A DNA stretch of 34,780 nucleotides from Acidobacteriota bacterium (lineage in GTDB: Bacteria > Acidobacteriota > Polarisedimenticolia > J045). A model generated the notes under the pieces. It saw nothing but the letters and a program-made list of their open reading frames with translations, did not search any database and was not told where the DNA came from. The DNA lies in contig CP070706.1 in the NCBI GenBank assembly GCA_020350085.1, forward strand, positions 3,865,620 to 3,900,399, read 5' to 3'. Positions 5,046 through 28,943 of this stretch are shown here, piece after piece (the first letter of the stretch is position 1; every line of letters starts with the position of its first letter). The translations under genes and the position numbers were made by a program.

Positions 5046-5170
5046 CGTCTTCTGCTCCGAGTCGTCCGCCCCGATCGATAAACAGCAGCGCTTCAGCTCC
5101 CATGGTGCCACGCGCGCCTCGCCCTCGACCAAAGTCATGGAAACGGCATCACATGCTCGGCAGCGGGACT

Positions 5171-5632: not shown

Positions 5633-7890
5633 CGGCGCCGCCTCGGCCGTATGGCCTTTCGTCGTCCACGCCCGCTCCGTCGCTTCGGGCCGGCGGATGG
5701 CGGTCGCTGGCGCCGGCTCCGTCGTCCGCGATCTTCGGCGTTTTCGTCACCGACGAGAGTAAAGTCCACGAAGTGGCGCAGCAGATCGACTCGGTCGACG
5801 CGGACGCGTACTTCCTGACCGAGCCGGAAAGTGGCTCCTGACTTCGAACCGGTCATCTTGCGCCGCTTCGCATCGTAGCGGAAATACTCCTCGCCCAGCC
5901 GGCGAACCGGAATCAGGCCCTCCACGTAAGGTTCGTCGAGCAACACGACCAGGCCGTGAGGAGCGATCTCGACGATCCTCCCCGCATACTCCTCTCCCAG
6001 TCGCTGACTCATGAAAGTGGCGGTCTTCCAGCTCAGCGCCTCACGCTCTGCCGCCTCTGCGTCGCGCTCGAGCCGCGAGCACTCACGCGCCATCTCGGGC
6101 ATTCGCGCGGCGCGATCTTCGGCGCTACCCGGCAGCTCGCGGTGACCGGCGCGCAGCCTGCGCAGTGCGCGATGCACGACAAGATCGGGATAGCGCCGAA
6201 TGGGTGACGTGAAGTGCAAGTAACGCGGCAGTGCGAGGGCGTAGTGCCCCAGGCACTCGGGATCATAACGGGCCAGTGACATCGTGCGCAGTACGAGCCG
6301 GACAACGCACGGCTCCTCCGGCCGCCCGGCCACGAGGCGCAGCAGATGAGCGAAATCTTCAGGGGCCAGGGCTTGATAGGGCTCGGGAACCCGGTAGCCC
6401 AGACCTTGGAGCATCTCCGCCAGCCGAGCAACCCTATCGACGTCCGGTCGCTCGTGCGCCCGATACAGGCAGGCCGCGCGAGCTTGAACGAGTTCGGTCG
6501 CGACCGCGGCGTTGGCCGCGATCATGAACTCCTCGATCATGCGGTGTGCGGCATTGCGCTGGCGGGCGACGATCTGCTGCGTCTCGCCCGTGAGCGCCAG
6601 CAGAACCTCCGGTTCCGGCAGGTCGAAGTCGATGGCCCCTCGAGAATGACGCCGCTCGGCCAGCTTGCTTGCCAGCTCGTGCGCCGTGTCGAGCATCGGT
6701 ACGAGGAATCGGCGGCGCTGGCGCGCGGATCGGTCGCGCTGCTCGACGACGGCGGCCACCTCGGTGTACGTCAGACGTGCGCGAGACCGGATCAGACCGT
6801 CGTGGCAACGCCAATAAGTCAGCCGGCCCTCGTCGTCGAACTCGAGCGAGACGCCCTGCGTCAACCGCAGCTGGCGCGGCCGAAGCGAGCACAGGTCGTT
6901 GCTCAACCGCTCGGGAAGCATCGGGACGGCGCGGCCCGGAAAGTAGACGCTCGTCGCCCGGCGCGCCGCTTCCTCGTCGATCGCCGACTCCTCGCGCACG
7001 AAGAACGCCACATCGGCAATGTGCACGTGCAGCCGGTAGCCTCCGTCCTCGAGGCGCTGGACCGAGATCGCGTCGTCGAAGTCTTTCGCGGTCTCGCCGT
7101 CGATGGTCACGACCGTGTCGTTCGTGAAATCCTCGCGTGAGGACAGCGGCCAGCCCGCCGGCGAGCCAGGAAGGGCATCGACCTCTTCGACGACGGCTTC
7201 GGGGAACGTCGGCGAGAGGTCGTACTTGCGGATCAAGACCTCGACTTCGACACCGGGCTCGTCGAGCCAGCCCAGCCTCTCGACGATGCTGCCCCGCAAC
7301 GGCGCACCAGAGCGGCTGGCCGGCAGCGGCCCGAGCTCGACCCGTACGACCTCCCCAGCTCGAGCGCCAGCGCGTCCCTCACGCGGTACCTTGATCTCGA
7401 TCCCGAACCCCTCGTCGAGCGGCTCGACGCGCCCGCCACCGCTCGAGCTCGGATGAAAAAGCCCGGTGATGCGATCGCTTCTGCGATCGACGATGCGAAC
7501 GATGCGCCCCTCGCGCCGGCCGTCCGGCTGCACGTCGACCACGCGGGTGGCGACGATGTCCCCGTGCAGCGCGCCGCCCGCCGCACCCGGCGGAATGAAC
7601 ACGTCGCTCTGAAGCGGATCGTCCGGCACGACGAAGCCGAAGCCTTGACGATGACGGCTGAAGCGACCCACGGCATCGCCCATCAGCCGCGTGGGCGCGA
7701 AGCCGCGCCCACGCACCGCGACGAGCCGTTGTTGATCCACGAGCTCGCGCAGCCAGCGCCGCAGCGCCGGACGGCCGCTGGCGCGCACGCCGAGGGCCTC
7801 CGCTATCTGGCGGGCGGTCATCACGGACGGCATCGACGGATCGGCAAACAGCCGCTCGATCTGCGCGTAGCTGGGAAGCTCTCGTGGCAA
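5629..7890 (-). CDS. rnr: Ribonuclease R (RNB-family 3'-5' exoribonuclease) with basic C-terminal tail
   Basis: N-terminal HTH-like segment (ARQIAEALGV...LRELVDQQRLV), cold-shock-like domain (GFGFVVPDD), RNB motifs (DGETAKDFDDAISV, YFPGRAVPMLPERLSNDLCSL, HFTSPIRRYPDLVVHR), S1 domain (GRIVEIAPHGLVVLLDEPYVEGLIPV) and an Arg/Lys-rich tail. Candidate starts are TTG at 7890 (keeps the conserved LPSYAQIERLF helix) or ATG at 7833. The maximal ORF to 8337 is a low-complexity extension overlapping the divergent neighbour, and I rejected it. Confidence 0.9.
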   Translation of the reverse strand: MPRELPSYAQIERLFADPSMPSVMTARQIAEALGVRASGRPALRRWLRELVDQQRLVAVRGRGFAPTRLMGDAVGRFSRHRQGFGFVVPDDPLQSDVFIPPGAAGGALHGDIVATRVVDVQPDGRREGRIVRIVDRRSDRITGLFHPSSSGGGRVEPLDEGFGIEIKVPREGRAGARAGEVVRVELGPLPASRSGAPLRGSIVERLGWLDEPGVEVEVLIRKYDLSPTFPEAVVEEVDALPGSPAGWPLSSREDFTNDTVVTIDGETAKDFDDAISVQRLEDGGYRLHVHIADVAFFVREESAIDEEAARRATSVYFPGRAVPMLPERLSNDLCSLRPRQLRLTQGVSLEFDDEGRLTYWRCHDGLIRSRARLTYTEVAAVVEQRDRSARQRRRFLVPMLDTAHELASKLAERRHSRGAIDFDLPEPEVLLALTGETQQIVARQRNAAHRMIEEFMIAANAAVATELVQARAACLYRAHERPDVDRVARLAEMLQGLGYRVPEPYQALAPEDFAHLLRLVAGRPEEPCVVRLVLRTMSLARYDPECLGHYALALPRYLHFTSPIRRYPDLVVHRALRRLRAGHRELPGSAEDRAARMPEMARECSRLERDAEAAEREALSWKTATFMSQRLGEEYAGRIVEIAPHGLVVLLDEPYVEGLIPVRRLGEEYFRYDAKRRKMTGSKSGATFRLGQEVRVRVDRVDLLRHFVDFTLVGDENAEDRGRRSRRQRPPSAGPKRRSGRGRRKAIRPRRRR

Positions 7891-8035
7891 TCGATTCGCG
7901 TTCTGAGACCTAGGAGCCTTCCACCGCCTCGTCGGCTCGACGCACGGTCTCGAGGAATACTCAGGGCTCGTACCGCAGTATTCTGGCACTTCTTCCCACC
8001 TCAGGGCAGCGGCCCCGCCGACACCCGGAGCTGTG

Positions 8036-10924
8036 ATGAAGCGTTCGAAAGCCACGCACGAGATCGCCCCTCCCGCCGTTCTGCGCGGCCTCGCGATCGC
8101 GTTGTTCACGCTCTCGGGAGCCGCTGCGCTGACCGTCGAGGTGGTCTGGACCCGCTGGCTGACGCTCGCACTCGGCAGCAGCGCGCGAGCGACGGTGCTC
8201 GTGCTCGGGACGTTCATGCTCGGGCTCGGCCTCGGCTCGCTACTGGCGGGCCAGATCGGCGACCGGCGACCCGCCCGGGGCTTGATGCTCTTCGGCACGG
8301 CCGAGCTGCTCGTCGGTGGCTGGGCGCTGCTGTCCATCCGGCTTCTCGGTCAGGCTCTCCCGGAGTGGGCTGCCGCCGCGGCGCGGGCCGGCGGAGACGT
8401 GGCGCTCGCGCTACCTCTTCGTGCTTTTTTCGCTCTCGTGGCGCTGTTGGTACCGACGATCCTGATGGGTGCCACGCTGCCGTTGATCGGCCGCTGGGCG
8501 GTCGCCGTCGGTGGCCTGCCCGGGAGAGACATCGGCTGGTTGTATGCGCTGAATACCCTCGGAGGTGCGGCAGGCTGCCTGCTGGCTGCCTTCTGGCTGA
8601 TCGAGCGGCTCGGCCTGGCGGGCTCGGCCGCGGCGGCGGGAATGACCGACATCGGGGTCGGTCTGCTGGCTGTCGGCCTCGCTCTCGGCCTGGGTCGAGC
8701 GGGTGCCAGCGAGCGGGCGCGCCCCGAGCGGCCCCGCCCACGTCTCCGTGAGACCGACCGTCGAGCGCCGGCTCTCTCTTCAATGCCGGGTCCTGCGCCG
8801 GCGCTGTCGGCCGCCTTCGGCTTCGGCGTCAGCGGGATGGTCGGCCTGGGGCTGGAGGTGGTGTCGCACCGTGTGTTGTCGATCCTCGCCGGCTCGAGTG
8901 CCTACGCCTTCGCCGTCATGCTCGCGGCGTTCTTGTTCGGGATCGCGCTCGGCGGTCTGATCGGCTCGTGGCTGGCGGATCGAGTCGGTCAGCCCGGCGC
9001 CTGGCTCGCCGGCACGCTCGCGGGCCTCGCTCTCGGCGTCGGCATCGCGCGCTGGGTCTTTCATGCCGGCTGGTGGGAGCGCGCGGGCACGCTGGCGGAT
9101 GCTCTTCCCGGCCTGTCCTCGTGGAGCTACGGGCTAGAGATGGCGGGGTGTTTGCTGGCGCTGCTTCCCGCCACGCTGATGCTCGGGGCCGCGGTGCCGC
9201 TGGTGGCTCGGCTGGCGGGCGAGATTCCCGAGCGGCTCGCTCATCGCTTCGGCGCCGCGTACGCGTTCAATACGATCGGCGCCGTCGCCGGAGCGGCATG
9301 CGCTGGACTGCTGTTGGTGCCCTGGCTGGGCACGGCACGGAGCTTCTCCGTGCTGGCAGGCCTCGCGGGGACCGCCGGCGCGCTGCTCGTGGTGAGCGCC
9401 GTGCCGGCCGGGAGCCGCGGCCGACCGTCGCTCGTGGTGGTCGGCTTCACCGCGGCCGGAATGCTGCTCGGTATCGGCACCGACCCGGTGCGGGAAACGA
9501 TCCTCTCACGCGTCGGCCCGCACGAGTTGCTCGCGTTTCACGAGGGGCCTGTGCAAACCATCGCCGTCGTCGAGGAGCAGAACGATCAGCAGCTGCGATT
9601 TTTGCGCCTGCTGACCAATCGTACGAGCCTTACGGGAACACATCTCTACGCTCGCCGGTACATGAGCCTGCTCGGCCACCTGCCAGCGCTCTGGACCGAA
9701 GCGCCGCGACGCTCGCTCGTGATCTGCCTCGGAACCGGAATGACGGCGGCCGCACTCGCGACGCACCCCGATGTCGAGACGCTCGACATCGTCGAGATCT
9801 CCCCCGAAGTCGTGGCCGTGGCGCCGCTGTTCCGAGCGGTCAGCAACGACATCCTCGACGATCCCCGAACCCGGCTTCACGTCGAAGATGGCCGGCACGT
9901 GCTGCTGGCGGCCGCCGATTCGTGGGACCTGATTACGCTCGAGCCTCCCCCGCCCCGCGACTCCGGGGTCGTTTCGCTGTACTCGACGGATTTCTACCGT
10001 CTCGCGCGATCGCGTCTGAGTCCCAGGGGCGTTCTTGCGCAGTGGGTGCCATTGCATTCGCAATCACTGGAGGAGGTACGGGCGCTGGTGCGCTCGTTCG
10101 TCGACGAGTTCCCGCACGCGCTCGGCTTTCTGCCGGTCGAGCGCGAGCTGCTGCTTCTGGGCGCTGACACGCCTTTGCGGGTCGATCTCGGCAGCTTCGC
10201 CGAGCGGATCTCTCGAGACACCGTGCGGCGTTCTCTCGAGACGATCGGTCTCGCCGACGCGGCAGCTCTCTTGGCCACCGCAATGCTCGATCGGAATCAG
10301 CTCGTGGGCTTCGCGGGCCAGGCCGTCGCGGTCTCGGACGACAATCCGCTGGTCGAGTACTTCGCCCGATTCGGCAAGCGGCCGCCTCTGCCGGTGATCG
10401 ACGCCCTCGCTGCAACGCCGCTTCCGCTCGATGAACTGCTCAACCATCCGCCGCCGACTGTTTTCCGAGACGAGTTTACGCGCGCTCGCTCGGCGTTACG
10501 GGCGCTCTTGCGAGCCGGTTGGGAATCGGAGCGCGGCAACATGCAGCAGTGGGAACGAATGAGCCTGGAATCGCTCCGACTGCGGCCACACGACGCCTAT
10601 TTGCGGTGGGCGGCGGGGCTTTCTGACGAGCATCTGGCGCTCCACCGCCGCCGCGCCGAGCAGGCCTCGAAAGACCCCAGGCTGTGGCGCACGTTGGGCC
10701 GCAAGCTGGTGCTCGCGGGATCGTACGATGAGGCGTTGAGCGTTTACGAACGGGCCTACGAACTTGCGCCGGAAGACCCGATGTTGCTGCTCGAGTATGG
10801 TGACCTGCTCGTCGGTCCGGGAGGCCGGCCTGAACAGGGCCGCATCTTGCTCGAGCGGTTACTCCGCAGGCTCTCGCCGGACCATCCGCTGGTTGCCGAG
10901 ATTCGGCGGCGCATCGGGCGCTGA
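8036..10924 (+). CDS. Fused MFS-like polytopic membrane domain / spermidine-synthase-like (class I MTase fold) domain / C-terminal TPR protein
   Basis: The N-terminal ~480 aa contain many hydrophobic helices. The central region is spermidine-synthase-like (SLVICLGTGMTAAALATHPDVETLDIVEISPEVV...HVEDGRHVL...WDLITLEPPPP...LYSTDFY). The C-terminal helical repeats are TPR-like (GSYDEALSVYERAYELAPEDPMLLLEYGDLL). ATG 8036 has GGAG 6 nt upstream; GTG 8033 is also possible. Confidence 0.8.
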   Translation: MKRSKATHEIAPPAVLRGLAIALFTLSGAAALTVEVVWTRWLTLALGSSARATVLVLGTFMLGLGLGSLLAGQIGDRRPARGLMLFGTAELLVGGWALLSIRLLGQALPEWAAAAARAGGDVALALPLRAFFALVALLVPTILMGATLPLIGRWAVAVGGLPGRDIGWLYALNTLGGAAGCLLAAFWLIERLGLAGSAAAAGMTDIGVGLLAVGLALGLGRAGASERARPERPRPRLRETDRRAPALSSMPGPAPALSAAFGFGVSGMVGLGLEVVSHRVLSILAGSSAYAFAVMLAAFLFGIALGGLIGSWLADRVGQPGAWLAGTLAGLALGVGIARWVFHAGWWERAGTLADALPGLSSWSYGLEMAGCLLALLPATLMLGAAVPLVARLAGEIPERLAHRFGAAYAFNTIGAVAGAACAGLLLVPWLGTARSFSVLAGLAGTAGALLVVSAVPAGSRGRPSLVVVGFTAAGMLLGIGTDPVRETILSRVGPHELLAFHEGPVQTIAVVEEQNDQQLRFLRLLTNRTSLTGTHLYARRYMSLLGHLPALWTEAPRRSLVICLGTGMTAAALATHPDVETLDIVEISPEVVAVAPLFRAVSNDILDDPRTRLHVEDGRHVLLAAADSWDLITLEPPPPRDSGVVSLYSTDFYRLARSRLSPRGVLAQWVPLHSQSLEEVRALVRSFVDEFPHALGFLPVERELLLLGADTPLRVDLGSFAERISRDTVRRSLETIGLADAAALLATAMLDRNQLVGFAGQAVAVSDDNPLVEYFARFGKRPPLPVIDALAATPLPLDELLNHPPPTVFRDEFTRARSALRALLRAGWESERGNMQQWERMSLESLRLRPHDAYLRWAAGLSDEHLALHRRRAEQASKDPRLWRTLGRKLVLAGSYDEALSVYERAYELAPEDPMLLLEYGDLLVGPGGRPEQGRILLERLLRRLSPDHPLVAEIRRRIGR

Positions 10925-11011
10925 GCAGATCCGCCGGTCAGCATCGTCTTGCCGACTCGCGCCGGCCGCGGAGGATTCGTGTTTTCGCGCTTGCAGGCAC
11001 CGGGAGCGATC

Positions 11012-11040
11012 TTGACGGACCTGCCGGCAGGTCCTACCCT
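11012..11040 (+). promoter_or_regulatory. Sigma70-like promoter candidate for tRNA-Leu, with a palindromic spacer
   Basis: TTGACG (11012-11017), a 17-nt spacer, then TACCCT (11035-11040), about 40 nt upstream of the tRNA. The spacer is essentially the perfect 18-bp palindrome GGACCTGCCGGCAGGTCC (11017-11034). Confidence 0.3.
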
Positions 11041-11080
11041 GATGCGCTCCGGGGAATCACAACCCCGAACGTCTCTGCTG

Positions 11081-11167
11081 GCCGAAGTGGCGGAATTGGC
11101 AGACGCGCATGGTTCAGGACCATGTGCCCAATAGGGCGTGCCGGTTCGAGTCCGGCCTTCGGCACCA
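11081..11167 (+). tRNA. tRNA-Leu (anticodon CAG), class II with long variable arm, genomically encoded CCA
   Basis: Acceptor stem GCCGAAG/CTTCGGC. D-arm region GGCGGAATTGGCAGACGC. Anticodon stem-loop CATGG-TTCAGGA-CCATG gives anticodon CAG. Long variable arm TGCCCAATAGGGCG. T-arm GCCGG-TTCGAGT-CCGGC. Discriminator A followed by CCA. Confidence 0.93.
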
Positions 11168-11267
11168 GTTGATGGCTCGCTGGTTTCTCGCCAACGCCCT
11201 GCTTCACGCGTTGCGGTGCCGGGATCTCGATGGGGCGAGGGCTCGAAGCTGCGAGCTCCTCCGAAGC

Positions 11268-11885
11268 TCAGACATCGCCAGGATCTTCCTCGTCGGCCCG
11301 GCGGGCGGCTTCGAGCAGCAACAGCTGAGGGTCGATGGCAATCTGGGCATCTGCGTGGGGCAAGCGGCTGCTTACCGTGCGGAATCGGAAGATGCCACGC
11401 CCCCAGCCGAGCATTCTCGTCGTGTGCGCCTTCATCTGTTCGCTGAGCGCCTCGGCCAGCAGGACGGGAGCCAGGGCCTGCATCTCCACCAAGACCTCGC
11501 CCAGCGGTCTCCAAGCGGCAGCCGCGGCCTGCCGGCGCAGACCCTCGTGCAGTTCCTCAGCCTCCACCGCGTAGCGACGCAGCAGAATCGCGCCCAGCGT
11601 CTCCGATGAGGGCGTGACTCGCGCCCGCGCGACGCGCCCGCCGCGAAGCTCCAACTCACCTCGCTCGGGGGGCATCTCCCGCTCGACGATCAGCACGCCG
11701 TCCTGACCGGAAGCAGCGATCACTTGCAGCGCGTCGGCAAGGGAGATGGCCTCGAGCCGTCCCGACAGCACGAGCGAGCTGGCCGATCTCGACGACGTGC
11801 GAGCCGATGCTCTGCTGCGGTTTCGTTCGACCTCGTGGGCAGCTCTCACCCGACCTCCGGAGCCGGCACGTCGTCCGAGCCGCAC
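11268..11885 (-). CDS. DUF4388 (PatA-N/PATAN-like) domain protein
   Basis: LSGRLEAISLADALQVIAASGQDGVLIVE...GELELRGGRVARA matches the DUF4388 signature (L.G.L..i.l.dllQ.l...g.tG.L.v......G.i.f..G.iv.A). The C-terminal half has LGxxL...L..AL..Q-type helical repeats. The true start may be the internal GTG at 11771, since the first ~38 residues are R/S-rich. Confidence 0.6.
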   Translation of the reverse strand: MRLGRRAGSGGRVRAAHEVERNRSRASARTSSRSASSLVLSGRLEAISLADALQVIAASGQDGVLIVEREMPPERGELELRGGRVARARVTPSSETLGAILLRRYAVEAEELHEGLRRQAAAAAWRPLGEVLVEMQALAPVLLAEALSEQMKAHTTRMLGWGRGIFRFRTVSSRLPHADAQIAIDPQLLLLEAARRADEEDPGDV

Positions 11886-11971
11886 CCCCCGGACCGGGCC
11901 GGCGGTGCTCCTCGTCGATCACTTGCGAAGCAGAACGTAGGTTTGCGAGCGGTCACGGGCAATCGCGGAGC

Positions 11972-12562
11972 TCAGCCTGGCCTCGGCTGTCTTTTGACCG
12001 CCACCTCGCGCAGCCCGTCACGACGCAGGTAAATCTCGTCGACTCGCATCGGGCGCATCAACGAGTCGATCTCGCGATTGCTGCGCGGACGCGAGGCCGA
12101 CGACGAGCCCGGAACCGGGGTCAAGCGCAGGCGCCCGTCTCTGGCGACATCCAGTCGGAATCTCGGAATCGTCCGGCCTGTGCCACGACGGACAAGCAAG
12201 AACACTCTTCCCCCGGGTCGCAGGATGCGCCGCCACTCGCGGCTCAGCTCGCGAGCCTCGTCGTCGTCGAGCATGTCCAGCACGTCGCTGGCCAGAATGA
12301 GATCGAAGCTCTCATCGGGGTAGGCCAGCGGCGGCGTGAGTCGGTCCTCGCCTTCGACCGTGACGTGCGCTCCCGCGGCGCTGAAGGTCTCGATGGACTC
12401 TCCGGACGGCGGGCCGAGCAGCAAGACGTGTGTCTCGCGGCCCTGTTCCGAGCGCCGGCCGACCAGCTCGAGAACCTCCGTGATGATGCGCGAGGGAGAC
12501 AACATGGCGGCGCCCGGCATGGAAAGAAGATCTCCACCTGAGCGCCGCCGAAACATTCGCAT
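11972..12562 (-). CDS. Class I SAM-dependent methyltransferase-like protein (Methyltransf_11-like)
   Basis: VLLLGPPSGESIETFSAAGAHVTVEG (motif I/post-I region), FDLILASDVLDMLDDDEARELSREWRRILRPGGRVFLLV (motifs II-III). Motif I is degenerate (GPPSG instead of GxGxG). Confidence 0.7.
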   Translation of the reverse strand: MRMFRRRSGGDLLSMPGAAMLSPSRIITEVLELVGRRSEQGRETHVLLLGPPSGESIETFSAAGAHVTVEGEDRLTPPLAYPDESFDLILASDVLDMLDDDEARELSREWRRILRPGGRVFLLVRRGTGRTIPRFRLDVARDGRLRLTPVPGSSSASRPRSNREIDSLMRPMRVDEIYLRRDGLREVAVKRQPRPG

Positions 12563-12640
12563 CGACCCTAAAGACCCTTACAGCGCATGGAGCCCCTGCG
12601 GCCCAGACCGTCCAGACCGTGATTCAGCCACACCGACGGA

Positions 12641-13186
12641 TCAGGACGAGACGCCGACCGGCTTGGCCGTGCCGCTACTGGGGACGCTCTTGTCCGCAGT
12701 CTGCGGCTTGGCTGTCGCAGGTGCCGGAGCTCCGCTGGGTGCGCGCTTGCTCCGATCCATGTCAACGCTGCCCTTGAATTGCGCACCGTCGGCAATGACG
12801 ATCCGTGGCGAGACGATATCGCCGTTGAGCGTGCTGCCCGCAGCGAGCTCGAGTCGCTCTCCGGCGACGACGTCACCTTTGACCGTACCCTCGACTCGGA
12901 TCGACTTGGCCTCGAGGGTCGCTGCGATGTGCGCCTGCTTGCCGATCGTCAGATGATGGTCCCGCAGACGGACCACACCCTCGATGCGACCTTCGATGAC
13001 CAAGTCCTCGCTTCCGATGAGCTCACCTTTGACCTGAATCGATGGTCCGATGATCGCCTTGCGTTCCTCCATACCGACACCTCTTGCGGGGGCCTGACCG
13101 GTCGTCGAGCGAGCCGGCTTGGGCGTCTCCGCGGGAGTGGCCGTCGAGCGGCTCTCGTCTTGTTCTTTGCGACCCCACATGGCCAT
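12641..13186 (-). CDS. Bactofilin (polymer-forming cytoskeletal protein, DUF583 core)
   Basis: The core beta-helix repeat is IIGPSIQVKGELIGSEDLVIEGRIEGVVRLRDHHLTIGKQAHIAATLEAKSIRVEGTVKGDVVAGERLELAAGSTLNGDIVSPRIVIADGAQFKGSV, flanked by disordered P/A/T-rich N- and C-termini. A perfect AGGAGG lies 7 nt upstream of the ATG at 13186. Confidence 0.9.
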   Translation of the reverse strand: MAMWGRKEQDESRSTATPAETPKPARSTTGQAPARGVGMEERKAIIGPSIQVKGELIGSEDLVIEGRIEGVVRLRDHHLTIGKQAHIAATLEAKSIRVEGTVKGDVVAGERLELAAGSTLNGDIVSPRIVIADGAQFKGSVDMDRSKRAPSGAPAPATAKPQTADKSVPSSGTAKPVGVSS

Positions 13187-13273
13187 ACCTTGCCTCCTAG
13201 CAGTCGTCGCGGCCGTGGATTGGGCGGACCGACGGCAATGCGTCGCGGCGTCGTAAAAGGGCGCGTTCCGTCA

Positions 13274-14362
13274 TCAAGACGCCGACTCGCTCGGGAAGCG
13301 CTCGATCAGCTTTCGCATCGAAATGCCGGCCTCCCGCTTGACGAGCCCGTCACGGTCCTCGTAGAAGGCCTTGTCGAGAACCTCCATGCTCTCGCGGCGC
13401 CCCACGTCGCCAAGAATGCGCGCTGCTTCGGCTCGGGCGAGTTCCGATCGAGCGCGCAGCGTACGGTCTTCGAGAAAAGCCACCGCTGCCTTGTCGCCCA
13501 TGAGCGCCAGGCAGTGAGCCATCACGACCGCCGCCAAGTCATCTTCTTCTATCGCCAGCGCTTGCTCAATCACCTCGCGCGCGCGGTCTCCTTGTAGCTG
13601 CATGACGGCCCACGCAGCTTTGCCTCGCGTGACCGCATCGAAGTCCTGCAGCGCCTCGAGGACAGTCGCCAGCCCCTTCGGATCCCCGATCTCGCCGAGC
13701 GCCTCCACCGCCCACGATCGGTTGCGGTTGTTGTCGGTGTGGTAGACCTCGATCAGTGAATCGACGGCGCGCGGATCACCGAGTCGCCCGAGGGTCATTA
13801 CGGAGGCGTTGCGAATGTTCTCGTCGTAATCATTGGCCAATCGCTGCAACAAGAAGTCGATGCCGGCGGGCTGCTTGACGACGGCCAGCGAAGTCGTCAC
13901 GGTGCGGCGCACCTCGAGAGCTGGATCGTCGCCGGGCCCGCGCGGTAACGCCTGCTCACCCATGCGAACGAGCACCTCCGCGGCGTCTGGGTAGAACTCC
14001 GGCTCGACGTCGCGAAGAGCCTGGGCCACCGCCACGCGCACGAGCAAGCTCTCGTGCTCGATGAAGCGCGCGAGGGCGTCGACGGCCCGCTTCGTGCCGA
14101 TGCGACCGAGAGCATCGACGGCGTTGATCTGCACCAGCTCGGGCTGCGTCTCGATCGCCTCCACCAGCGTCGCGATGTTCTCGTTGGCGCCACGCTTGCC
14201 GAGCTGGGCCGCAGCGAGCGCCTTCTCGTCCGGGGTACCGCCGCCGAGCCCGCCGCCGCACGCTGCGAGCAAGCCAGCGCAGACGAGCAGCAGCACGATC
14301 CCCGTCAATCGCGGAGTCTGGCGGCCACCGCCCTCCGCGCCACCTCCGTCGTTGCGCATCAC
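13274..14362 (-). CDS. HEAT-repeat (PBS-lyase-type) lipoprotein
   Basis: Signal with lipobox LLAAC. Multiple HEAT-like repeats follow (AVDALGRIGTKRAVDALARFIEHESLLVRVAVAQALRDV; NASVMTLGRLGDPRAVDSLIEV; WAVEALGEIGDPKGLATVLEAL; AARILGDVGRRESMEVL). The start is GTG 14362 or ATG 14359. Confidence 0.8.
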   Translation of the reverse strand: MMRNDGGGAEGGGRQTPRLTGIVLLLVCAGLLAACGGGLGGGTPDEKALAAAQLGKRGANENIATLVEAIETQPELVQINAVDALGRIGTKRAVDALARFIEHESLLVRVAVAQALRDVEPEFYPDAAEVLVRMGEQALPRGPGDDPALEVRRTVTTSLAVVKQPAGIDFLLQRLANDYDENIRNASVMTLGRLGDPRAVDSLIEVYHTDNNRNRSWAVEALGEIGDPKGLATVLEALQDFDAVTRGKAAWAVMQLQGDRAREVIEQALAIEEDDLAAVVMAHCLALMGDKAAVAFLEDRTLRARSELARAEAARILGDVGRRESMEVLDKAFYEDRDGLVKREAGISMRKLIERFPSESAS

Positions 14363-14394: not shown

Positions 14395-15975
14395 GTGCGG
14401 GGGTATCTTAGTGGCGTGCTTCGCTCGGGGGCAAATCTGTGGCGACGGAATCCCGGCCGCCTCGCGGCGTCTTGCCTGCTGTCGGCGCTCGTCACACTGA
14501 CGGGCTCGGGCGCCGCCAGCGCTGAACGAGACCCGCTCACCGAGTGGATCAAGGGGCCCGTTCGCTATCTGATGTCGCGGAAAGAGGCGCGCCTGTTCAA
14601 GCGCCTGGAGACCGACCCGGAGCGGCTCGAGTTCATCCGCCGATTCTGGGAGCGGCGAGATCCCGACCCCCGCACGCCAGAAAACGAGGCCCGGCTGGCT
14701 TTCTGGTTCCGCGTCTCGCAGGCCAACCGGCAGTTCGCCGACACCCCGGCACCCGGCTGGCGAACGGACCGCGGAAAGATCTTCATTCTGCTGGGGCCGC
14801 CCGACGATATCGAGCGTGCTCACGATTACGACACGCAGCAGCGGGAGATCGCCGCGCGCGGTCTGATGCGCTGGCACTACTACGGGCTCGAGCGGGCGGC
14901 GATTCGCGCCGTGACGGTGATCGCGTTCGTTCGAGACAGCGACGACGACTGGCGCCTGACGGCGGACCCGAAGCTATCGAGCGTTTTTCTCGACCTCAAC
15001 AGCCCGTATTCGGAGGCCCTTCCGCCGACGATCGAGCTGCTGCTCGATCAGATCCCCTATGGCGGGGGCACGATGAGCACCGCCATGGACCTCGGGCGCC
15101 TGCAGGAAGTCCCGACGGAGCGGGACATGCTGCGCTCGGCCGTGCGCTCGGAGCAGTTCCTCGGCACCTACGACGGCCGTGCGGCGGTCCACTCGTTGGT
15201 CGACACGGCGGACACGGCCCTGCTCGCGGTGACAGTCGCGCTGCCCAAGAACCAGCTGCGTCCCGAATGGGACGGCTCGCCGATCGGACTCTCCCAACGC
15301 TTCAGCATCTCCGCGGAGCTGCGTCCAGCTTCGCCAGAGACGATCGAAGTCGGCACGATCGAATTCCCCGAAGCCTCCTTCATCGCGGAACCGGCTCCGC
15401 AAAGCGACGATCCTTGGATCCGATTTCAGGCCGTGCGCGCCGTGCCCGCTGGAAGCTGGCGATTGTCCGCGCTTGCGTTCGACCGGCCTGGAGGCGGTGC
15501 TGCCGTCATTCATCGCGACGTGACGGTCGAAGCTCCGCCGGTGCGCGGACCACGGGTCAACGGGCCGATTCTCGCTCGATCGCTCATCGAAGCGGGCGGA
15601 CCGGCGGACGAAGGAACCGTCCCGTTCAGGCTGCGCGACTATCTGGTGATTCCCCGCGTGGATCATACGCTGTCGATCGAGGACCCGTTCGCGATCTACA
15701 TCGAGGTTTTCGAGCCGCCAGCAATCGCTCAGCCAGTCGGTCTCGAGTGGCAGTTCTGGCGGCTCGGCGAGGACGAGCGTGCCACGGCGCTCGGTCAGCC
15801 GGGACGTCTTGATGACGGGCGAGGGCCGCGAGCGTGGCAATTCGAGCCGGGCCGTTTCGCGCCAGGGAGCTACCGCGTCGTCTTCACGGCAACGGTGCCC
15901 GACGGTCAGCCTTTGATCCGCTCGCTCGAGTTCGTCGTCAAGGACTCGCCGGCGGCGTTGCGGCGGGGGAGTTGA
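14395..15975 (+). CDS. GWxTD domain-containing secreted protein
   Basis: N-terminal signal (LAASCLLSALVTLTGSGAASA). The GWxTD region reads FIRRFWERRDPDPRTPENEARLAFWFRVSQANRQF...PGWRTDRGKIFILLGPPDDIE. The start at 14395 is GTG, and later in-frame GTG/CTG starts are possible. Confidence 0.8.
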   Translation: MRGYLSGVLRSGANLWRRNPGRLAASCLLSALVTLTGSGAASAERDPLTEWIKGPVRYLMSRKEARLFKRLETDPERLEFIRRFWERRDPDPRTPENEARLAFWFRVSQANRQFADTPAPGWRTDRGKIFILLGPPDDIERAHDYDTQQREIAARGLMRWHYYGLERAAIRAVTVIAFVRDSDDDWRLTADPKLSSVFLDLNSPYSEALPPTIELLLDQIPYGGGTMSTAMDLGRLQEVPTERDMLRSAVRSEQFLGTYDGRAAVHSLVDTADTALLAVTVALPKNQLRPEWDGSPIGLSQRFSISAELRPASPETIEVGTIEFPEASFIAEPAPQSDDPWIRFQAVRAVPAGSWRLSALAFDRPGGGAAVIHRDVTVEAPPVRGPRVNGPILARSLIEAGGPADEGTVPFRLRDYLVIPRVDHTLSIEDPFAIYIEVFEPPAIAQPVGLEWQFWRLGEDERATALGQPGRLDDGRGPRAWQFEPGRFAPGSYRVVFTATVPDGQPLIRSLEFVVKDSPAALRRGS

Positions 15976-22691: not shown

Positions 22692-25600
22692 TCAGAACGG
22701 CTCACCGATCGAAAGGAAGAACTCACCACCTGACTCGCCTTCCAGACGATCGAGCTTCCAACCGTAGCCGATGCGCAGAGCACCGACGGGCGTACGCCAG
22801 CGCAGGCTCAGACCGAGCGTCTCGCGCAGATCGTCGAGCGACAGCTGGTCGGCGTCCAGCCAAACATTGCCCCGATCGTGAAACAGCACCAGTTCGAAGT
22901 TCTCCCACAATCGCCGGCGGAGGTCCACGTTCAACAACAACAACCCCTCGCCACCCAGCGGCTCACCGCCCGGTCCATCTGTCGGCCCGAGCCGGTCTCG
23001 CTCGAAGCCGCGCAGAGTGTCGGCGCCGCCGGCGAACAGCCGCTCGGCGAGTGGCACCCGCCGCGTGTCGCGCCTCGGCGCGGCGGCGGCCACCCTCAGC
23101 GAGCCCCCCAACGTCCACCTCTCGCCCAGCCGACGGTAGCCCGCGAGCTGACCGCTCCAGCGCATAAAGTCGGCCTCCGAGGCCAGGGTGTCGGACCACC
23201 AGCCGAGCTCGCTAAGCCCCATCCAGCCCTGCGTCGGCAGAAAGATGTCGTCGCGACGATCGAGAATCCAAGATGCGCTGAGCGAGCCGAGCTGAATCGG
23301 ATCGAGCCGGCCGCGCTCGGTGAGCAGCACGTCTTCGAGCACCTCAGCACTGAGAGTGACGTCCTTGAAGCGGTTGTCGTCCAACTGGTATCGCAACTCC
23401 CACCGGCGAGACCGGTCTGTCCTGGTGGCGAGTTGGACCGCAATGCCCGGTGAGGTGACGGTGAAGCCGTCACGCGTCTCTTCCTCGATGCCGAGCGAAA
23501 GCAGTGCTTCATAACGCGCGCGCCGCACGTAAGGGTCCTCGAGCGTGATTCGAGCCCCTCGCCGACGATCGGAGACGAAACCCTGCAGTGCCCCCGTACG
23601 GCCCAGCCCGGCCAGGTTGTCGTGCGAGAGTGATGCGCTGACGCGGACTTTCTCCTCGGTGTCGTAGCCGAGCGAAGTCAACAGCGAGAGCGGGGAGATC
23701 TCCTCGAGCTGGATCATGACGATGTGGCGCTCAGGGTCGCTGACGAGCGGTTCGTGAACGATCTCGATTCCACGAAACAGTCCGAGCTGGAACAGCTCCC
23801 GTTCCGTCGCGCGCAACGCCCGCTGAGACAGCGGCTGTCCGGGCTCGATCTGAAGGCGACGGGCGACCAGCTTCTCGCGCGTGCGGGCCAGTCCCTCGAT
23901 CTGGATGCTCTCGATCATCGCCTTGGGGCCGGGCTGGACACCGAAGGTCACATCCACGACCGATTCGCGGATCTCCGGGCGGATCACGACCGCCGCCGTG
24001 TAGTAGCCTGCCTGGTCCAAGTCTGTCGCCAACCGCTGCAGAGCCCGCTCGAGATCTGCCGTCAGGAAGGCCGCCCCGGGAGTCAGCAACACCCTCTGCG
24101 TCGCGGGGCCGAGCTCCTCCGGCCAGTCGCCTTCGACGCGCACCTGGCCCAGATCGAATCTCCGGCCCTCCTCGATGACGAAGGTCAACACGACCGCCTC
24201 GCCGTCGCCCCGAAAACGCACGCGCGACGTCACGTCTGCCTCGAGATAGCCGCGCGACTCGTAAAGCGTGCGGATCGCGGCGAGATCCTCCCCGACCAGC
24301 TTCGGGCGGTAGAGGGTGCGTCCGCCCGGTGCCCAACCTGCCCGGGGACGCGACAGCACCTGCGCGCTGACGTCCTTGACCGGAAGCGCCTCAAGTCCCT
24401 CGAACGAGACCTCCTCGACGAACACTCGCGGCCCGGGATCGAGCGAGACGCTCAGGTGCCGTCGTGCGGGATCGGGTTGGCGGACTTCCACGAAGGCCGC
24501 TGCGTAGCCTTCGTCGGCCAGAGCATCCTCGAGCACGCGCTCGGCTTCACGAAGTCGTTCCGGGCGGAAATCGGTCGCGGCCCACAGGGCAGACAGCTGC
24601 TCGCGAGCACGGCGAACCGATCGCGGAGGCCCATCGAAGGCGATCTCCCAGCGAGGGCCCGGATCGACGCGCAGGCGGACGTTGGCCCCTTTGACCATCG
24701 TCTTCGTCTCGATCTCGATGTCGGCTTCGAGGAAGCCCTGCTCGGCCAGCGATTGGCGCAGGCTCTCGCTGGCCGCCAGCAGCCGCGCGCGGTGGGCTGG
24801 CTGACCCGACCCGAGTCCTAGTCGCCGTAGGCTCGGCGGGTCCAGATCTTGCGGCAGGCCCGTGATGCTCGCTTCGCGGATCGCGACGGACGAGCCGTCG
24901 TCGATCTCGGCGCCCATCGTTCGCCGCCGACCGAAACGGTTGAACCAGCGAAGATCGACGGCGACGGCGTCGGACTCACTGCCGAGCGCGAGTCGGAACG
25001 CGCGCCCGAGGTCTCGCTCGATGCGATACACGTCGCGGGCCTCGGCCGACAGGTCGCGCGAGTAGAGCACGGACGTGCGCTCGTCGATGCGGCTGCCGAC
25101 GGTCAGTCGCGCCGTCGGGCGTGATTCTGGTCCCACGACGGTCGGAGCGAGCTGCAGCGTCGTGATCCCGAACAGCCGTCGCACCGGCTCGGCGAGCAGC
25201 AGCTCACCGAGCTGGGTGCCGAAGTAGGCCGTCGCGAAGTCGGGCCGGAGCAGTCCTCCTCGGCCTCCCATCTCGTCGAGCGTCTGTCCCGTGATCAGCA
25301 GCGCAAGGATCTCCTCCTGGCTCAGCGCCGGGACGGACGCCAGCCGATAGTCGAGCGAACTGCTCGAGGCATCGAGATCGAGCTGAATGCGATAGCCGCG
25401 CAGCTCGGTGAAAGCCCGCAAGCGCAATCGCACCGGCTCGGCGTGCACGTCGTCGAGGATGACTTGCCCTGAGACGACCTCGTAGTCCTGCCCGCGAAAC
25501 GAGAGTCGTCCGCCCTGAGCCAGCACGATCGTGCCCGCGAGCAGCGGGCGACCCAGCGTGCCGCTGACGTCGAGTCTCAGCGACGATTCGAGCCGCGCCA

Positions 25601-28600
25601 GATCGTTGCGAATGGCGAGCGAATCGTCGGCCACGAGCCGAACGCGCACGCCGGTGCGGTAAAGCCACGAGGAGAGGCCATAGGAAGGATCGAGCAACCT
25701 CACGCGATCGCCGATCAGTCCACCGATACCGAACGGCTGCGTGTAGCGGCCCGCCAGCATCCGCAGCTCGCCGCTGATCTCGAGTCCAGACAGCGCGCCC
25801 TCGACCTTCAGATCGCCATCGTAACGTCCCCAGATGCCTTCCGGCTCGTTGAGCGCGACATCGCGAGCCGTTAGCGCGATGTCGACCCGCTGAGGCGTCC
25901 ATCCTTCCAAGCTGACTTTTCCAGAAGCATCGACTCGCCCGCCTCCGAGCCGGCAACGGGCTTCTTGAATCGTCACATCATGACCTTCGAGTCGCAGCCG
26001 CCCGGAGAGCCGGTCGAGCCCGTCGTCAAATGCCAGCGACCGCGCGAAGCCGTCGGACACGCGCAGCTCCCCACCAAACTGCGGATCGCTCGTGGTACCG
26101 CCGATCTCGAACTGGCCCTCGACTCGGCCGTCGATGATCAGCTCTGGAGCGAACGCTTCGAGCAGCCGAAGATCCCACGAGCCGTCGCCGACCAGCTGCA
26201 AAGTCCCGGCGCCGTCACCCGCGAGGCCGACGCCACCCGTGATGCGGAGCAGACTTCCGCGCTCGCCAGCGAGCTCGGCAGGCCGATCCCGCTCGATTTC
26301 GAGCAGGCCGTCGCGGGAGAGACGCAAGCCGACTGGGTCCCGCAAACCGGCAAAGAAGGTGGGACCCTCGATATCGAGGCGCATCAGGCTTCCCGAGCCG
26401 GTCCACTCTCTCGGAGCGCTCCATGCTCCTTCGAACGACAACCTGCCGTCGGTACGCAGCGACAGCGACAACGGCGAGCGTCGGCCCAAGATCTGCTCCG
26501 CCATCGGAACGAGCTCGAGATCCGACCAGCGCAGCTCGGCGGCCACTCGGCTCGCGCGGTCCACGAGCTGCCCGTGCAGCTTCATGGCCCCGGCGCGCGC
26601 CTCGAAGCTCCAGGCTCCATCCGCGGCCGGCCCAAACGTCGCGACGCCGTCCGGGACGGGCGCTCCGGCTGCGATGAGATCGCGCCACCGGATCTCACCG
26701 CGACTCGAGGCAAGCAGCTGCTCGGCCCACTCGGGGCGGTGCTCAGAAGACCATCCGGCGAGCGGCCCGCTCAGCGCCGCATGGAGCCGGACCGTCCCGC
26801 TGCCGAGCGCCACGGACCAAGCGAGCGGGAAGCGCTCGATGTGCGTACTCGCCGTCAGCATGCCGTCGATCGCGCCGGGTTCCGTCAACGAAGGCAGGCT
26901 GCCTCGACCCTCAAACTGTGCTTCGAGACCCGGCGCGCGCAGCAACACGAGCGGCACGCGGAAGTCCGATCCGCGCCACGACCCCACGCTGATCAGCTGT
27001 CCCGGCCAAGCGCCAACGTTTCCGCTGCCGTGCACGAGCCAGTGCCCGTGAAGACCCGTGAGTTGCTGCTCGAGATCGACCTGGGCATCGAGCTGGCCCA
27101 CGAGCTCTGTGGCGAGACCGTCGTCGGTGCCACTGAGCCAGTCCACGCCCGCGTGGCGCTCGGCTAATGCCCGCACCGCGGAGAGCGGAAACGCCTCGGC
27201 ACGCACGCTGACCCGCCATCCCGGCCCTTCCGAAGCTGCGGCGCGCAGAAGCAGGCCGCGCCCGTCATCCTGCGCGAGCCGGCCCGAAACGGAGTCGATG
27301 CGCCCGTGCCGAACTCGAGCCAGCACTTCGAACCGATCGAAGCGCAGACCGGCCACGTCCGGCGCGGCCAGCTGCGCTTCGATCGTGCCCTCGCGAAGCT
27401 GTCTGCCGCGCCCGCGCAGCACGGCGCTGGCCGACGCCGACTCGCCGCTCGGCAGACCGCTCGACAGCGGACCCCAAACCTCGCGAGCGAGCGCGGCAGC
27501 CTGATCGCGCCACTCGCCGAGCGCTTCCGCCGTTGGCGCCGTGAGCCTGACCTGGGCCGTCCACTCCGGCTCCGGCCACGCCCCTCGCGTTTCGACGCCG
27601 AGATCGATCGCGCTCGCGCCGCAGCGGCCCGTCAGCCGGAGCGAGCCGCTCGTGGCGCGGCCCTGCGCTGCGAGCTCACCGCGCAGGGGCACGCCGCCGA
27701 CAGCCGCCTCGTCCGGCGTCAGCCCCCCCGAGAGCGTCCAGTCCGTCAGTCCGGCCCCGCCGATGCCGCGCGCTTCGAGCCGTAGCGTCGCGCGCGCCGA
27801 GAGCAGGCCCGATGCGGCCGTGGACTCGAGACCCAAGGCGCCGATGAGATCGGAACCGCTCAATGAAGCCGCAAGGCGCGCGTTCCAGTCTCCTCGCTGC
27901 CAGTCGATGATCCCGTCATCGACCGTCCATCCGTTCCGACCGCGAGCTTTCAGCTCCGAGACCAGCACGCGTCCCGGCGAGAGCGTCATGCGTGCGTCGA
28001 TGCGATCGAGCGACAGACCCGACCATGACAACGAAGGCCCTCCATCGAAACGCGTTTCTACGAGCCATCGGTCGCCGTCCGCGTAGCGCAATCGGCCGTG
28101 CGCTCGCACCCGCCCACTCGGCTCTCCAGGAAGCAACCCACCCAGCTGCTCGGCTTCGAACTCGGCTTCCAGCTCTCCCGTGGCGACGAGTCCGGATGAC
28201 ACCAGACCGACGTTGAGGCTGCCACCGAACGTAACGTCAGCTCCGCGCGCATCGATCTCGTCGAACGCGAGCCTCGGCGGTGTCCAGTTCAGCCGCGCCG
28301 CGACGCGCTCGAAGCTCCACTCGGATACACCCCGCACGGCGAGCCACACGCGACCGGTTTGGAGCCCACCCCGGCTGGCCCCCCTCGCTGGCGCGGTCTG
28401 CACCTGCAGCTCATCGACGTCGAGATCGAATTCGAGCGATGTCTCGTGCAGTGCTATCCGCCCCTCTCGCACGCGCACGCGCGAAAGCCGTGAGAGAATC
28501 GAGAAATCGAACTCGCTGTCCTCGGACGATTCTTCCGCGGGGGACTCGAGCCGGAGCCCGAGTCTGTCGACCGCAACGGACCGCAATCGGAGCCGGCCTT

Positions 28601-28943
28601 GAACGAGATCGCGTGCGAACACGGCGGCCTGGGCGCGCTCGGCCCGCAGACTGCGGATCCAGCGATCGCCCCCCTCGATGGACAGCTGTTCGAGGACCAC
28701 CTCCCGCCGTAAGAACGAAACGTGAAGCGTTCCGAGCTTCGCCTCGCCTCCCGTGGCCTGCTCCAGGCGCTCGATCACGAGCGGATGCAACCACGCCGCC
28801 GCCGCGCGCCCCGCGTACACGTACGCTGCCACCCCGAGACCGATCACGACCAGCGCCGCGCCCATCAGCGCGGGCCGTGCACGGCGTGCCGGGCGACGCG
28901 AGGCCTCCTCTCTCGTGTGGCCGGGATCAGGCGGAATGCTCAT
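22692..28943 (-). CDS. Giant 2083-aa fusion protein: TamB/AsmA-like translocation-and-assembly module (aa 1-~1337) fused to an Omp85/TamA-BamA-like module (five POTRA-like repeats plus a 16-strand-sized beta-barrel)
   Basis: One uninterrupted ORF. N-terminus: basic stretch plus TM anchor (ALMGAALVVIGLGVAAYVYAG) and an AsmA/TamB-like beta-rich region. TamB C-terminal DUF490-type region: GQFEIGGTTSDPQFGGELRVSDG...LRGYRIQLDLDASSSSLDYRLASVPALSQEEILALLITGQT...RLTVGSRIDERTSVLYSRDL...VDLRWFNRF, ending at nt 24933. After a short linker come five ~80-aa POTRA-like repeats (each ending in a DPGPR/EEGRR/QPGPK-type turn). The Omp85 barrel (about nt 22695-23690) carries the L6 motif ADTLRGF and the terminal beta-signal FFLSIGEPF. 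Confidence 0.9.
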   Translation of the reverse strand: MSIPPDPGHTREEASRRPARRARPALMGAALVVIGLGVAAYVYAGRAAAAWLHPLVIERLEQATGGEAKLGTLHVSFLRREVVLEQLSIEGGDRWIRSLRAERAQAAVFARDLVQGRLRLRSVAVDRLGLRLESPAEESSEDSEFDFSILSRLSRVRVREGRIALHETSLEFDLDVDELQVQTAPARGASRGGLQTGRVWLAVRGVSEWSFERVAARLNWTPPRLAFDEIDARGADVTFGGSLNVGLVSSGLVATGELEAEFEAEQLGGLLPGEPSGRVRAHGRLRYADGDRWLVETRFDGGPSLSWSGLSLDRIDARMTLSPGRVLVSELKARGRNGWTVDDGIIDWQRGDWNARLAASLSGSDLIGALGLESTAASGLLSARATLRLEARGIGGAGLTDWTLSGGLTPDEAAVGGVPLRGELAAQGRATSGSLRLTGRCGASAIDLGVETRGAWPEPEWTAQVRLTAPTAEALGEWRDQAAALAREVWGPLSSGLPSGESASASAVLRGRGRQLREGTIEAQLAAPDVAGLRFDRFEVLARVRHGRIDSVSGRLAQDDGRGLLLRAAASEGPGWRVSVRAEAFPLSAVRALAERHAGVDWLSGTDDGLATELVGQLDAQVDLEQQLTGLHGHWLVHGSGNVGAWPGQLISVGSWRGSDFRVPLVLLRAPGLEAQFEGRGSLPSLTEPGAIDGMLTASTHIERFPLAWSVALGSGTVRLHAALSGPLAGWSSEHRPEWAEQLLASSRGEIRWRDLIAAGAPVPDGVATFGPAADGAWSFEARAGAMKLHGQLVDRASRVAAELRWSDLELVPMAEQILGRRSPLSLSLRTDGRLSFEGAWSAPREWTGSGSLMRLDIEGPTFFAGLRDPVGLRLSRDGLLEIERDRPAELAGERGSLLRITGGVGLAGDGAGTLQLVGDGSWDLRLLEAFAPELIIDGRVEGQFEIGGTTSDPQFGGELRVSDGFARSLAFDDGLDRLSGRLRLEGHDVTIQEARCRLGGGRVDASGKVSLEGWTPQRVDIALTARDVALNEPEGIWGRYDGDLKVEGALSGLEISGELRMLAGRYTQPFGIGGLIGDRVRLLDPSYGLSSWLYRTGVRVRLVADDSLAIRNDLARLESSLRLDVSGTLGRPLLAGTIVLAQGGRLSFRGQDYEVVSGQVILDDVHAEPVRLRLRAFTELRGYRIQLDLDASSSSLDYRLASVPALSQEEILALLITGQTLDEMGGRGGLLRPDFATAYFGTQLGELLLAEPVRRLFGITTLQLAPTVVGPESRPTARLTVGSRIDERTSVLYSRDLSAEARDVYRIERDLGRAFRLALGSESDAVAVDLRWFNRFGRRRTMGAEIDDGSSVAIREASITGLPQDLDPPSLRRLGLGSGQPAHRARLLAASESLRQSLAEQGFLEADIEIETKTMVKGANVRLRVDPGPRWEIAFDGPPRSVRRAREQLSALWAATDFRPERLREAERVLEDALADEGYAAAFVEVRQPDPARRHLSVSLDPGPRVFVEEVSFEGLEALPVKDVSAQVLSRPRAGWAPGGRTLYRPKLVGEDLAAIRTLYESRGYLEADVTSRVRFRGDGEAVVLTFVIEEGRRFDLGQVRVEGDWPEELGPATQRVLLTPGAAFLTADLERALQRLATDLDQAGYYTAAVVIRPEIRESVVDVTFGVQPGPKAMIESIQIEGLARTREKLVARRLQIEPGQPLSQRALRATERELFQLGLFRGIEIVHEPLVSDPERHIVMIQLEEISPLSLLTSLGYDTEEKVRVSASLSHDNLAGLGRTGALQGFVSDRRRGARITLEDPYVRRARYEALLSLGIEEETRDGFTVTSPGIAVQLATRTDRSRRWELRYQLDDNRFKDVTLSAEVLEDVLLTERGRLDPIQLGSLSASWILDRRDDIFLPTQGWMGLSELGWWSDTLASEADFMRWSGQLAGYRRLGERWTLGGSLRVAAAAPRRDTRRVPLAERLFAGGADTLRGFERDRLGPTDGPGGEPLGGEGLLLLNVDLRRRLWENFELVLFHDRGNVWLDADQLSLDDLRETLGLSLRWRTPVGALRIGYGWKLDRLEGESGGEFFLSIGEPF

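Follow-up and report, generated by a model that had tools for sequence, protein, structure and literature searches.

Can the inner-membrane and outer-membrane partners of an envelope-spanning system be encoded as one polypeptide, and what would such a protein do? The question is raised by a gene for a TamB-Omp85 fusion in a 34,780-nucleotide (nt) stretch of DNA from an Acidobacteriota bacterium (GenBank assembly GCA_020350085.1, contig CP070706.1, positions 3,865,620 to 3,900,399), the whole of which was analyzed and is referred to here as the window. The gene lies on the minus strand at window 22692..28943 and consists of 2083 codons, beginning with ATG, plus a TGA stop codon at 22692-22694. 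A sequence-only reading of the window, which gave no strand, had described it as a single uninterrupted open reading frame (ORF) in which a TamB part precedes an Omp85 part, and the ORF listing, the translation and the order of the Pfam matches all agree with that description. The translation of 22692..28943 has 0 internal stops, the sequence contains 0 N bases, and the two parts are read in one frame on both sides of the linker that joins them. The sequence landmarks quoted in that reading are all present in the minus-strand translation, namely ELRGYRIQLDLD, PALSQEEILALLITGQT and AVDLRWFNRF, then GRRRTMGAEIDDGSS, ADTLRGFERD and a C-terminal SIGEPF directly before the stop codon. Codon-position GC is even over all 20 complete 100-codon blocks (amino acids (aa) 1-2000), junction included, at ~0.75 for GC1, ~0.5 for GC2 and ~0.8 for GC3. 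Thus, the existence of a single-polypeptide TamB-Omp85 gene is confirmed. The length of the ORF by itself is weak evidence in DNA of 67% GC. At L005, another locus with a fused gene (7329-13814, plus strand), an antisense ORF of 2201 aa lies opposite that gene (7512-14117, minus strand), an example of the long ORFs that occur by chance in GC-rich DNA.

The anatomy of the protein was established from Pfam profiles and two AlphaFold2 (AF2) models, one of aa 1-1000 with a predicted local distance difference test score (pLDDT) of 80.3, and one of aa 951-2083, built on a 41-sequence alignment, with a pLDDT of 82.5 and a predicted template-modelling score of 0.74. All features given below are on the minus strand. 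The chain starts with a basic tail, predicted to be cytoplasmic, which precedes a hydrophobic signal anchor at aa ~24-46 (PALMGAALVVIGLGVAAYVYAG; window 28806..28874). AF2 places a helix over aa 24-64, the 19-residue Kyte-Doolittle maximum is 2.09, and an N-terminal hydrophobic segment is found in 132 of the 151 full-length family members. Secondary structure from both AF2 models then gives an unbroken run of ~10-residue strands, a putative TamB/AsmA-like beta-rich groove of ~1140 residues (aa ~65-1205; 25329..28751), and weak YhdP/DUF748 Pfam matches fall at aa 16-183. The Pfam TamB (DUF490) profile PF04357 matches aa 1000-1337 (24933..25946) with E 4e-29 and 102.4 bits against a cutoff of 22.4, covering profile positions 9-381 of 381. 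This region includes an AF2 helix at aa 1209-1218 (LSQEEILALL; 25290..25319), which is kept in the consensus of the fused family, and a second at aa 1235-1258. In E. coli TamB, a conserved amphipathic helix of DUF490 is functionally important (PMC13119328); the helix at aa 1209-1218 may be its counterpart, judging from its position. Six terminal TamB beta-strands follow (aa 1262-1337; 24933..25160), and their alternation of hydrophobic and polar residues, read from the sequence, is the pattern of amphipathic transmembrane beta-strands. The last of these (aa 1326-1337) ends in the beta-signal-like VDLRWFNRF, but it has no free C-terminus, since 746 residues come after it.

The TamB part is joined to the remainder by the 16-residue linker GRRRTMGAEIDDGSSV (aa 1338-1353; 24885..24932), which is hydrophilic and has pLDDT values below 50 at aa 1340-1351. 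POTRA1 is preceded by this linker and the TamB part, and no separate signal peptide stands before the Omp85 half. Five POTRA domains, at aa 1354-1427, 1433-1502, 1508-1591, 1597-1670 and 1676-1748 (23700..24884), were recognized as five stretches by the Pfam POTRA profile and as five beta-alpha-alpha-beta-beta units by AF2. They are followed by a 16-strand Omp85 barrel (aa 1752-2083; 22695..23690), identified by its AF2 strands, by the NCBIfam profile TIGR03303, by the C-terminal SIGEPF and by Pfam Omp85 (PF01103), which matches aa 1776-2083 with 120 bits against a cutoff of 24. The loop-6 LRGF motif is located at aa 1977-1980 (nt 23004-23015). The three parts proposed from the sequence alone, i.e., a signal anchor with a TamB/AsmA-like part and DUF490 end, five POTRA-like repeats, and an Omp85 barrel with LRGF loop-6 motif and C-terminal Phe, were each recovered, and the profile searches suggested there place TamB/DUF490, the five POTRAs and Omp85 in that order. 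The linker also contains an in-frame ATG, Met1343 (GRRRTMGAE; window 24915-24917). We rejected this ATG as an independent start codon of the Omp85 half; the sequence downstream is a hydrophilic stretch without a signal peptide, which makes an internally started, exported Omp85 unlikely.

Although the two parts had been likened to TAM (translocation and assembly module), the Omp85 half is BamA-like and is not TamA. It passes the NCBIfam BamA equivalog model TIGR03303 marginally (aa 1457-2083; 299.8 bits vs. a cutoff of 297.15), with scores of 294 and 324 bits for other fused members, and it fails the TamA model NF047950 (99.1 bits vs. a cutoff of 625). It also carries five POTRAs, as opposed to three in TamA, and its sequence matches in the PDB are to BamA ahead of TamA. 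When the C-terminal AF2 model was compared with the PDB using Foldseek, the top matches were full-length E. coli BamA chains over ~800 columns, and the highest target-normalised TM-scores (0.57-0.58) fell on substrate-engaged or hybrid-barrel states, e.g., 9mge, 8bnz and 8sqa. This preference is suggestive only, although it hints that the barrel may be engaged by the TamB end of the same chain, as proposed below.

The fusion is not a one-off; it belongs to a large Acidobacteriota family that has apparently gone undescribed. With the full protein as query, a word-index search retrieved ~80 fused clusters (90% identity) of 2000-2400 aa, with the same set of Pfam domains and 23-43% identity to the query; the same type of search with the Omp85 half alone gave no fused homologues, so absence from that search is uninformative. 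In an exhaustive HMMER search, aa 1000-2083 were also compared with 1.84 billion cluster representatives, and the best 150 matches were listed, the last of them still at E = 3e-79. Among the matches listed, the last TamB strands and POTRA1 are both present in at least 136 of 143 new representatives (50% identity), and at least 107 of those that span the junction reach 1900 aa or more, with a median of 2058 aa. In 216 members, the last TamB strand and POTRA1 are separated by a median of 16 residues (10th-90th percentile range, 12-27.5), the shortest linkers being 8-12 aa. Family linkers are rich in G, P, R and A and show little sequence conservation. Of the 80 fused proteins that were aligned, 49 have F as the last TamB residue, 15 have L, 8 W, 4 I and 2 Y (78/80 together), and Gly follows it directly in 62 of the 80. 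Free-standing TamBs from the same searches have the C-terminal end ...FRKRF.

A scan of species-representative genomes, made with a 4-sequence alignment as query and reaching close relatives only, found fused loci exclusively in metagenome-assembled genomes (MAGs) of Acidobacteriota (L001, L002 and L005, with partial loci L003, L004 and L006). Matches in Binatus and Latescibacterota were canonical split operons in which a three-POTRA tamA precedes tamB, and canonical split tamA-tamB loci were seen at L007 and L009. All fused loci named to phylum level belong to Acidobacteriota; one NCBI member is labelled 'Deltaproteobacteria bacterium'. Automatic annotation has already given names to the relatives, 'BamA/...TamB' at JGI and 'TamB domain-containing protein' at NCBI (Vicinamibacteria and 'Deltaproteobacteria' MAGs). 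No account of a naturally fused TamB-Omp85 protein turned up in open-access or bioRxiv full text, including papers on the evolution of Omp85 and TAM, a 2024 review of TAM and the Borrelia paper cited below. A 2026 preprint on TamAB distinguishes three bacterial DUF490 length classes only, of up to 1700 aa, and mentions no fusion (PMC13119328). Therefore, the statement in the sequence-only reading that no characterised example was known holds as far as published descriptions go, but the gene represents a large family that databases already label 'BamA/TamB'. As to its further suggestion, to look in related genomes for fused and split versions, the fused architecture recurs widely and split tamB/omp85 operons were found as well.

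These split operons bear directly on the origin of the fusion. The nearest free-standing relatives of the fused Omp85 half, as retrieved by the word-index and HMMER searches, are proteins of 918-1053 aa with 22-31% identity to it, and in all six that were checked a separate tamB adjoins omp85, indicating that the two halves are partners in trans elsewhere. The order is tamB then omp85 in four of the six: directly adjacent in L019 (Acidobacteria MAG GCA_020845575.1), L021 and L022, and with a gene of the Uma2 family (PF05685; 4941-5942) in between in L020. The other two, L017 and L018, have omp85, a gene of ~215 aa and then tamB. In L019, the tamB stop overlaps the omp85 start as TGATG (7999-8003), its TamB ends in ...VRVRHIF, and its Omp85 has a clear signal peptide, making this locus a split, translationally coupled counterpart of the fusion. 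Signal peptides were found in all four free-standing Omp85 N-termini that were read (P0257, P0268, P0274 and P0275). Similarly, tamB precedes a seven-POTRA omp85 (Bd2495) in Bdellovibrio (Bd2494-Bd2495) and in Myxococcus (PMC3983030), and tamB precedes bamA in spirochaetes (PMC4494059). The fused gene is thus the covalent form of a pair that stays split in related genomes. The sequence-only reading correctly saw that a single ORF with TamB first reverses the canonical tamA-tamB operon, and argued that loss of a stop codon cannot produce such an arrangement. This is true for the canonical order; however, given that split tamB-then-omp85 operons exist in Acidobacteriota and other metagenomic genomes (L019-L022) and in the published cases, a small indel would suffice to create the fusion if the Omp85 signal peptide was lost as well. 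Accordingly, that interpretation was largely right, but it overstated the uniqueness of the gene and its evolutionary difficulty. Crude neighbour-joining trees, built from the DUF490 region and from the barrel, show two to three fused clades interleaved with split genes, with very short deep branches.

The gene between omp85 and tamB in L017 (10856-11518) and L018 (11003-11647) is an observation in its own right. Its two products are 30% identical (E = 1e-33), have no Pfam match on record, and by eye resemble the SurA N-terminal domain at their N-termini. The ~215-aa protein is possibly a chaperone-like third member of the system. No counterpart of it was found inside the fused protein.

What, then, would the fused protein do? 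We consider it probable (roughly 65%) that it acts as a TAM-like trans-envelope machine made of one chain, with an anchor in the inner membrane, a groove that spans the periplasm and a TamB end that engages the BamA-like barrel of its own chain. On this proposal, the Sec system would insert the N-terminal signal anchor, which would remain in the inner membrane while the downstream chain is exported; the Omp85 half would need no signal peptide of its own because everything after the anchor is exported with it. The next ~1140 residues would form a TamB-type beta-groove across the periplasm. In cryo-electron microscopy structures of E. coli TamAB, six TamB strands are embedded in the membrane, and the C-terminal, beta-signal-like one joins the first strand of the TamA barrel to give a stable hybrid barrel (PMC13119328). 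By analogy with that pattern, the conserved DUF490 helix and the six amphipathic strands of the fusion would enter the outer membrane, and the beta-signal-like last strand would bind strand 1 of the Omp85 barrel in the same chain. With an even number of strands, the chain would come back to the periplasmic face, which is compatible with a fusion, and would continue through a linker of 12-28 residues into POTRA1, the five POTRAs and the 16-strand BamA-like barrel. The shortness of the linker predicts a closed POTRA ring with POTRA1 lying under the lateral gate. In models of the Borrelia proteins, TamB completes the BamA barrel, and POTRA1 is near POTRA5 (PMC13382580). Homology suggests a function in outer-membrane biogenesis, in which phospholipids would be carried along the groove, beta-barrel proteins assembled, or both, and the covalent link would impose 1:1 stoichiometry and permanent coupling. 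The sequence-only reading had proposed that the junction joins the two ends that interact in trans; indeed, the TamB C-terminus runs straight into POTRA1, but a hybrid barrel involving strand 1 of the Omp85 barrel goes beyond a contact with POTRA domains (PMC13119328) and alters how the geometry of the junction is to be read.

Several observations weigh against a trans-envelope machine of this kind. The TamB part scores far below the cutoff of the proteobacterial TamB equivalog NF047952 (20.8 vs. 825 bits), and when the N-terminal model was compared with the PDB using Foldseek, no TM-score exceeded 0.17 and the matches were confined to ApoB100 and barrel proteins, an outcome that says nothing about the groove. 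Moreover, a linker of 8-16 residues spans just ~30-55 Å and is possibly too short, unless a POTRA ring brings POTRA1 under the lateral gate. Finally, the linker is disordered and basic and could be a target for a protease.

This last point leads to an alternative in which the fusion is a polyprotein-type precursor, made only for co-export and 1:1 synthesis, whose linker would be cut by a periplasmic protease so that an ordinary TamB and a BamA-like Omp85 then associate in trans. The linker is the sole low-confidence stretch of the junction region, its G/P/R/A-rich composition with little sequence conservation would suit a processing site, the last TamB strand retains the features of a free C-terminal beta-signal, and the Omp85 half lacks a signal peptide. 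However, the aligned linkers show no conserved cleavage motif, and no conserved dedicated protease gene lies next to the fusion in the neighbourhoods compared (window, L002, L014 and P0027). Linker length is tightly held at 12-28 aa, a constraint that favours a structural tether over a cleavage site, and we regard processing as unlikely. A different mode of docking is also conceivable, with the six terminal TamB strands remaining in the periplasm and packing on POTRA1 or POTRA2, in keeping with an older model of TamB touching the POTRA domains, and with the barrel working like that of a normal closed or open BamA. In E. coli BamA, POTRA1 is the POTRA domain most distant from the barrel, and the very short linkers of some members (down to 8-12 aa) put the TamB end near POTRA1. 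The C-terminal domain of Borrelia TamB is also reported to bind several POTRA domains of BamA (PMC11361582). Against this, the strands carry a hydrophobic/polar alternation of the transmembrane type, the corresponding strands of E. coli TamAB are in the membrane, their even count returns the chain to the periplasm as a fusion demands, and the Borrelia models bring POTRA1 near POTRA5. Such periplasmic docking seems to us improbable.

Another alternative is that adjacent tamB and omp85 genes were merged by an indel or a chimeric join during sequencing or assembly. Split tamB-then-omp85 operons do exist, and with a 1-nt overlap of stop and start, as in L019, a single indel could mimic a fusion in one genome. 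However, the junction is common to at least 136 representatives and ~80 clusters drawn from NCBI, ENA, JGI and Logan assemblies, the Omp85 half lacks the signal peptide that the split genes have, codon-position GC is uniform, and the source contig is 4.1 Mb long. An artefact is therefore already effectively refuted. Genomes with the fusion likely also encode a separate, canonical BamA, considering that the fusion lies outside the bamA-skp-lpxD context (its neighbours in the window include neither skp nor lpxD), that its nearest relatives are linked to TamB, and that Acidobacteria possess a canonical BamA plus a second BamA (Heinz et al., 2015). With a low probability, the fused protein could instead be the sole BamA-type Omp85 of these Acidobacteriota, an essential barrel assembly machine tethered to the inner membrane by its TamB bridge. 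If so, the proposed ancestral BamA-TamB unit would live on in it as a single chain, with outer-membrane protein insertion and phospholipid delivery physically coupled at one site.

Among known systems, the TAM of Proteobacteria (TamA-TamB; YtfM/YtfN of E. coli) is the obvious point of comparison. Both combine a POTRA-bearing Omp85 barrel with an inner-membrane-anchored, periplasm-spanning TamB (in the fusion, by prediction) whose DUF490 end consists of a helix, six amphipathic strands and a beta-signal-like last strand, and both probably act in the biogenesis of outer-membrane lipids and proteins. As systems, they share the joint encoding of Omp85 and TamB, here in one ORF. Unlike TAM, which comprises two proteins with genes in the order tamA-tamB, the fusion is one polypeptide with TamB first; its Omp85 part is of the five-POTRA, BamA-like type, fails the TamA model and lacks a signal peptide, and its beta-signal-like TamB strand is internal, whereas that of TamB is C-terminal. 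Closer in the type of Omp85 are bacteria that pair TamB with BamA and have no TamA, such as Borrelia burgdorferi (BB0794/BB0795), diderm Firmicutes and Deinococcus. There too, TamB is associated with a five-POTRA BamA-type Omp85, and the C-terminal strands of Borrelia TamB are modelled to complete the BamA barrel (PMC13382580). In contrast to the fusion, with its 12-28-aa linker, these are two separate proteins, and the BamA is the only and canonical one, with its own signal peptide.

The split operons of Acidobacteriota, those of Bdellovibrio and Myxococcus (Bd2494-Bd2495) and the 'second BamA' of Acidobacteria include the nearest free-standing Omp85 relatives and adjoin tamB, but they consist of separate genes, with an Omp85 of 918-1038 aa that carries a signal peptide (in the four read) and has 22-31% identity to the fused half. 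From canonical BamA, the fused half differs in that it has no cleavable signal peptide and is not a stand-alone protein of ~800 aa. A precedent for one chain reaching from the inner to the outer membrane comes from Veillonella and other diderm Firmicutes, where an MlaD with a C-terminal outer-membrane barrel is proposed to span the two membranes for lipid trafficking. PMC13018214 speaks of a 'transenvelope MlaD component'. Its fold, an MCE domain with a helical stalk, is unrelated to the AsmA/TamB groove, and its barrel is not an Omp85 barrel.

TamB and other AsmA-like proteins are current candidates for the phospholipid route to the outer membrane, and their coupling to Omp85 proteins is being worked out now through the hybrid-barrel structures of 2026. 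A natural fusion that recurs in a major soil phylum offers evidence of the Rosetta-stone type for an obligate 1:1 unit of TamB and a BamA-like Omp85 with five POTRAs, and suggests that their association is permanent rather than transient. The kept linker of 12-28 residues predicts that POTRA1 lies near the point where the last TamB strand ends on the periplasmic side, and structural and biochemical studies could use the protein as a single-chain design that already exists. It also raises the question of how the C-terminal barrel of a ~225-kDa protein anchored in the inner membrane comes to be assembled in the outer one.

The genes that flank the fusion in the window are all on the minus strand, in the order glyS, PPDK, dksA, [fusion], ruvX, mltG and ABC-transporter genes. 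The order glyS-PPDK-...-[fusion]-...-mltG-ABC is common to the window and L002, and in L014, whose fused protein is 31% identical, the upstream part glyQS-PPDK-dksA-[fusion] is kept while the downstream genes differ. This synteny indicates vertical inheritance. The distant member P0027 has another gene context.

Elsewhere in the window, a Tol-Pal cluster on the plus strand (43-3060) encodes TolB (43-1452), an OmpA-family Pal-like protein (1463-2206) and a CpoB/YbgF-like TPR protein (2161-3060), from which it follows that the organism is a diderm with two membranes. Genes with no evident link to the fusion include those for RtcB RNA ligase (3606-5138) and RNase R (5629-8337), both within 3606-8337 on the minus strand, and those for a HEAT-repeat protein (13274-14362) and a GWxTD-domain protein (14395-15975). 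At 8033-10924 on the plus strand lies a gene for a 963-aa protein that combines a spermidine-synthase-like domain with C-terminal TPRs, and AT skew is unusually negative (-0.36 to -0.16) over 8001-11000.

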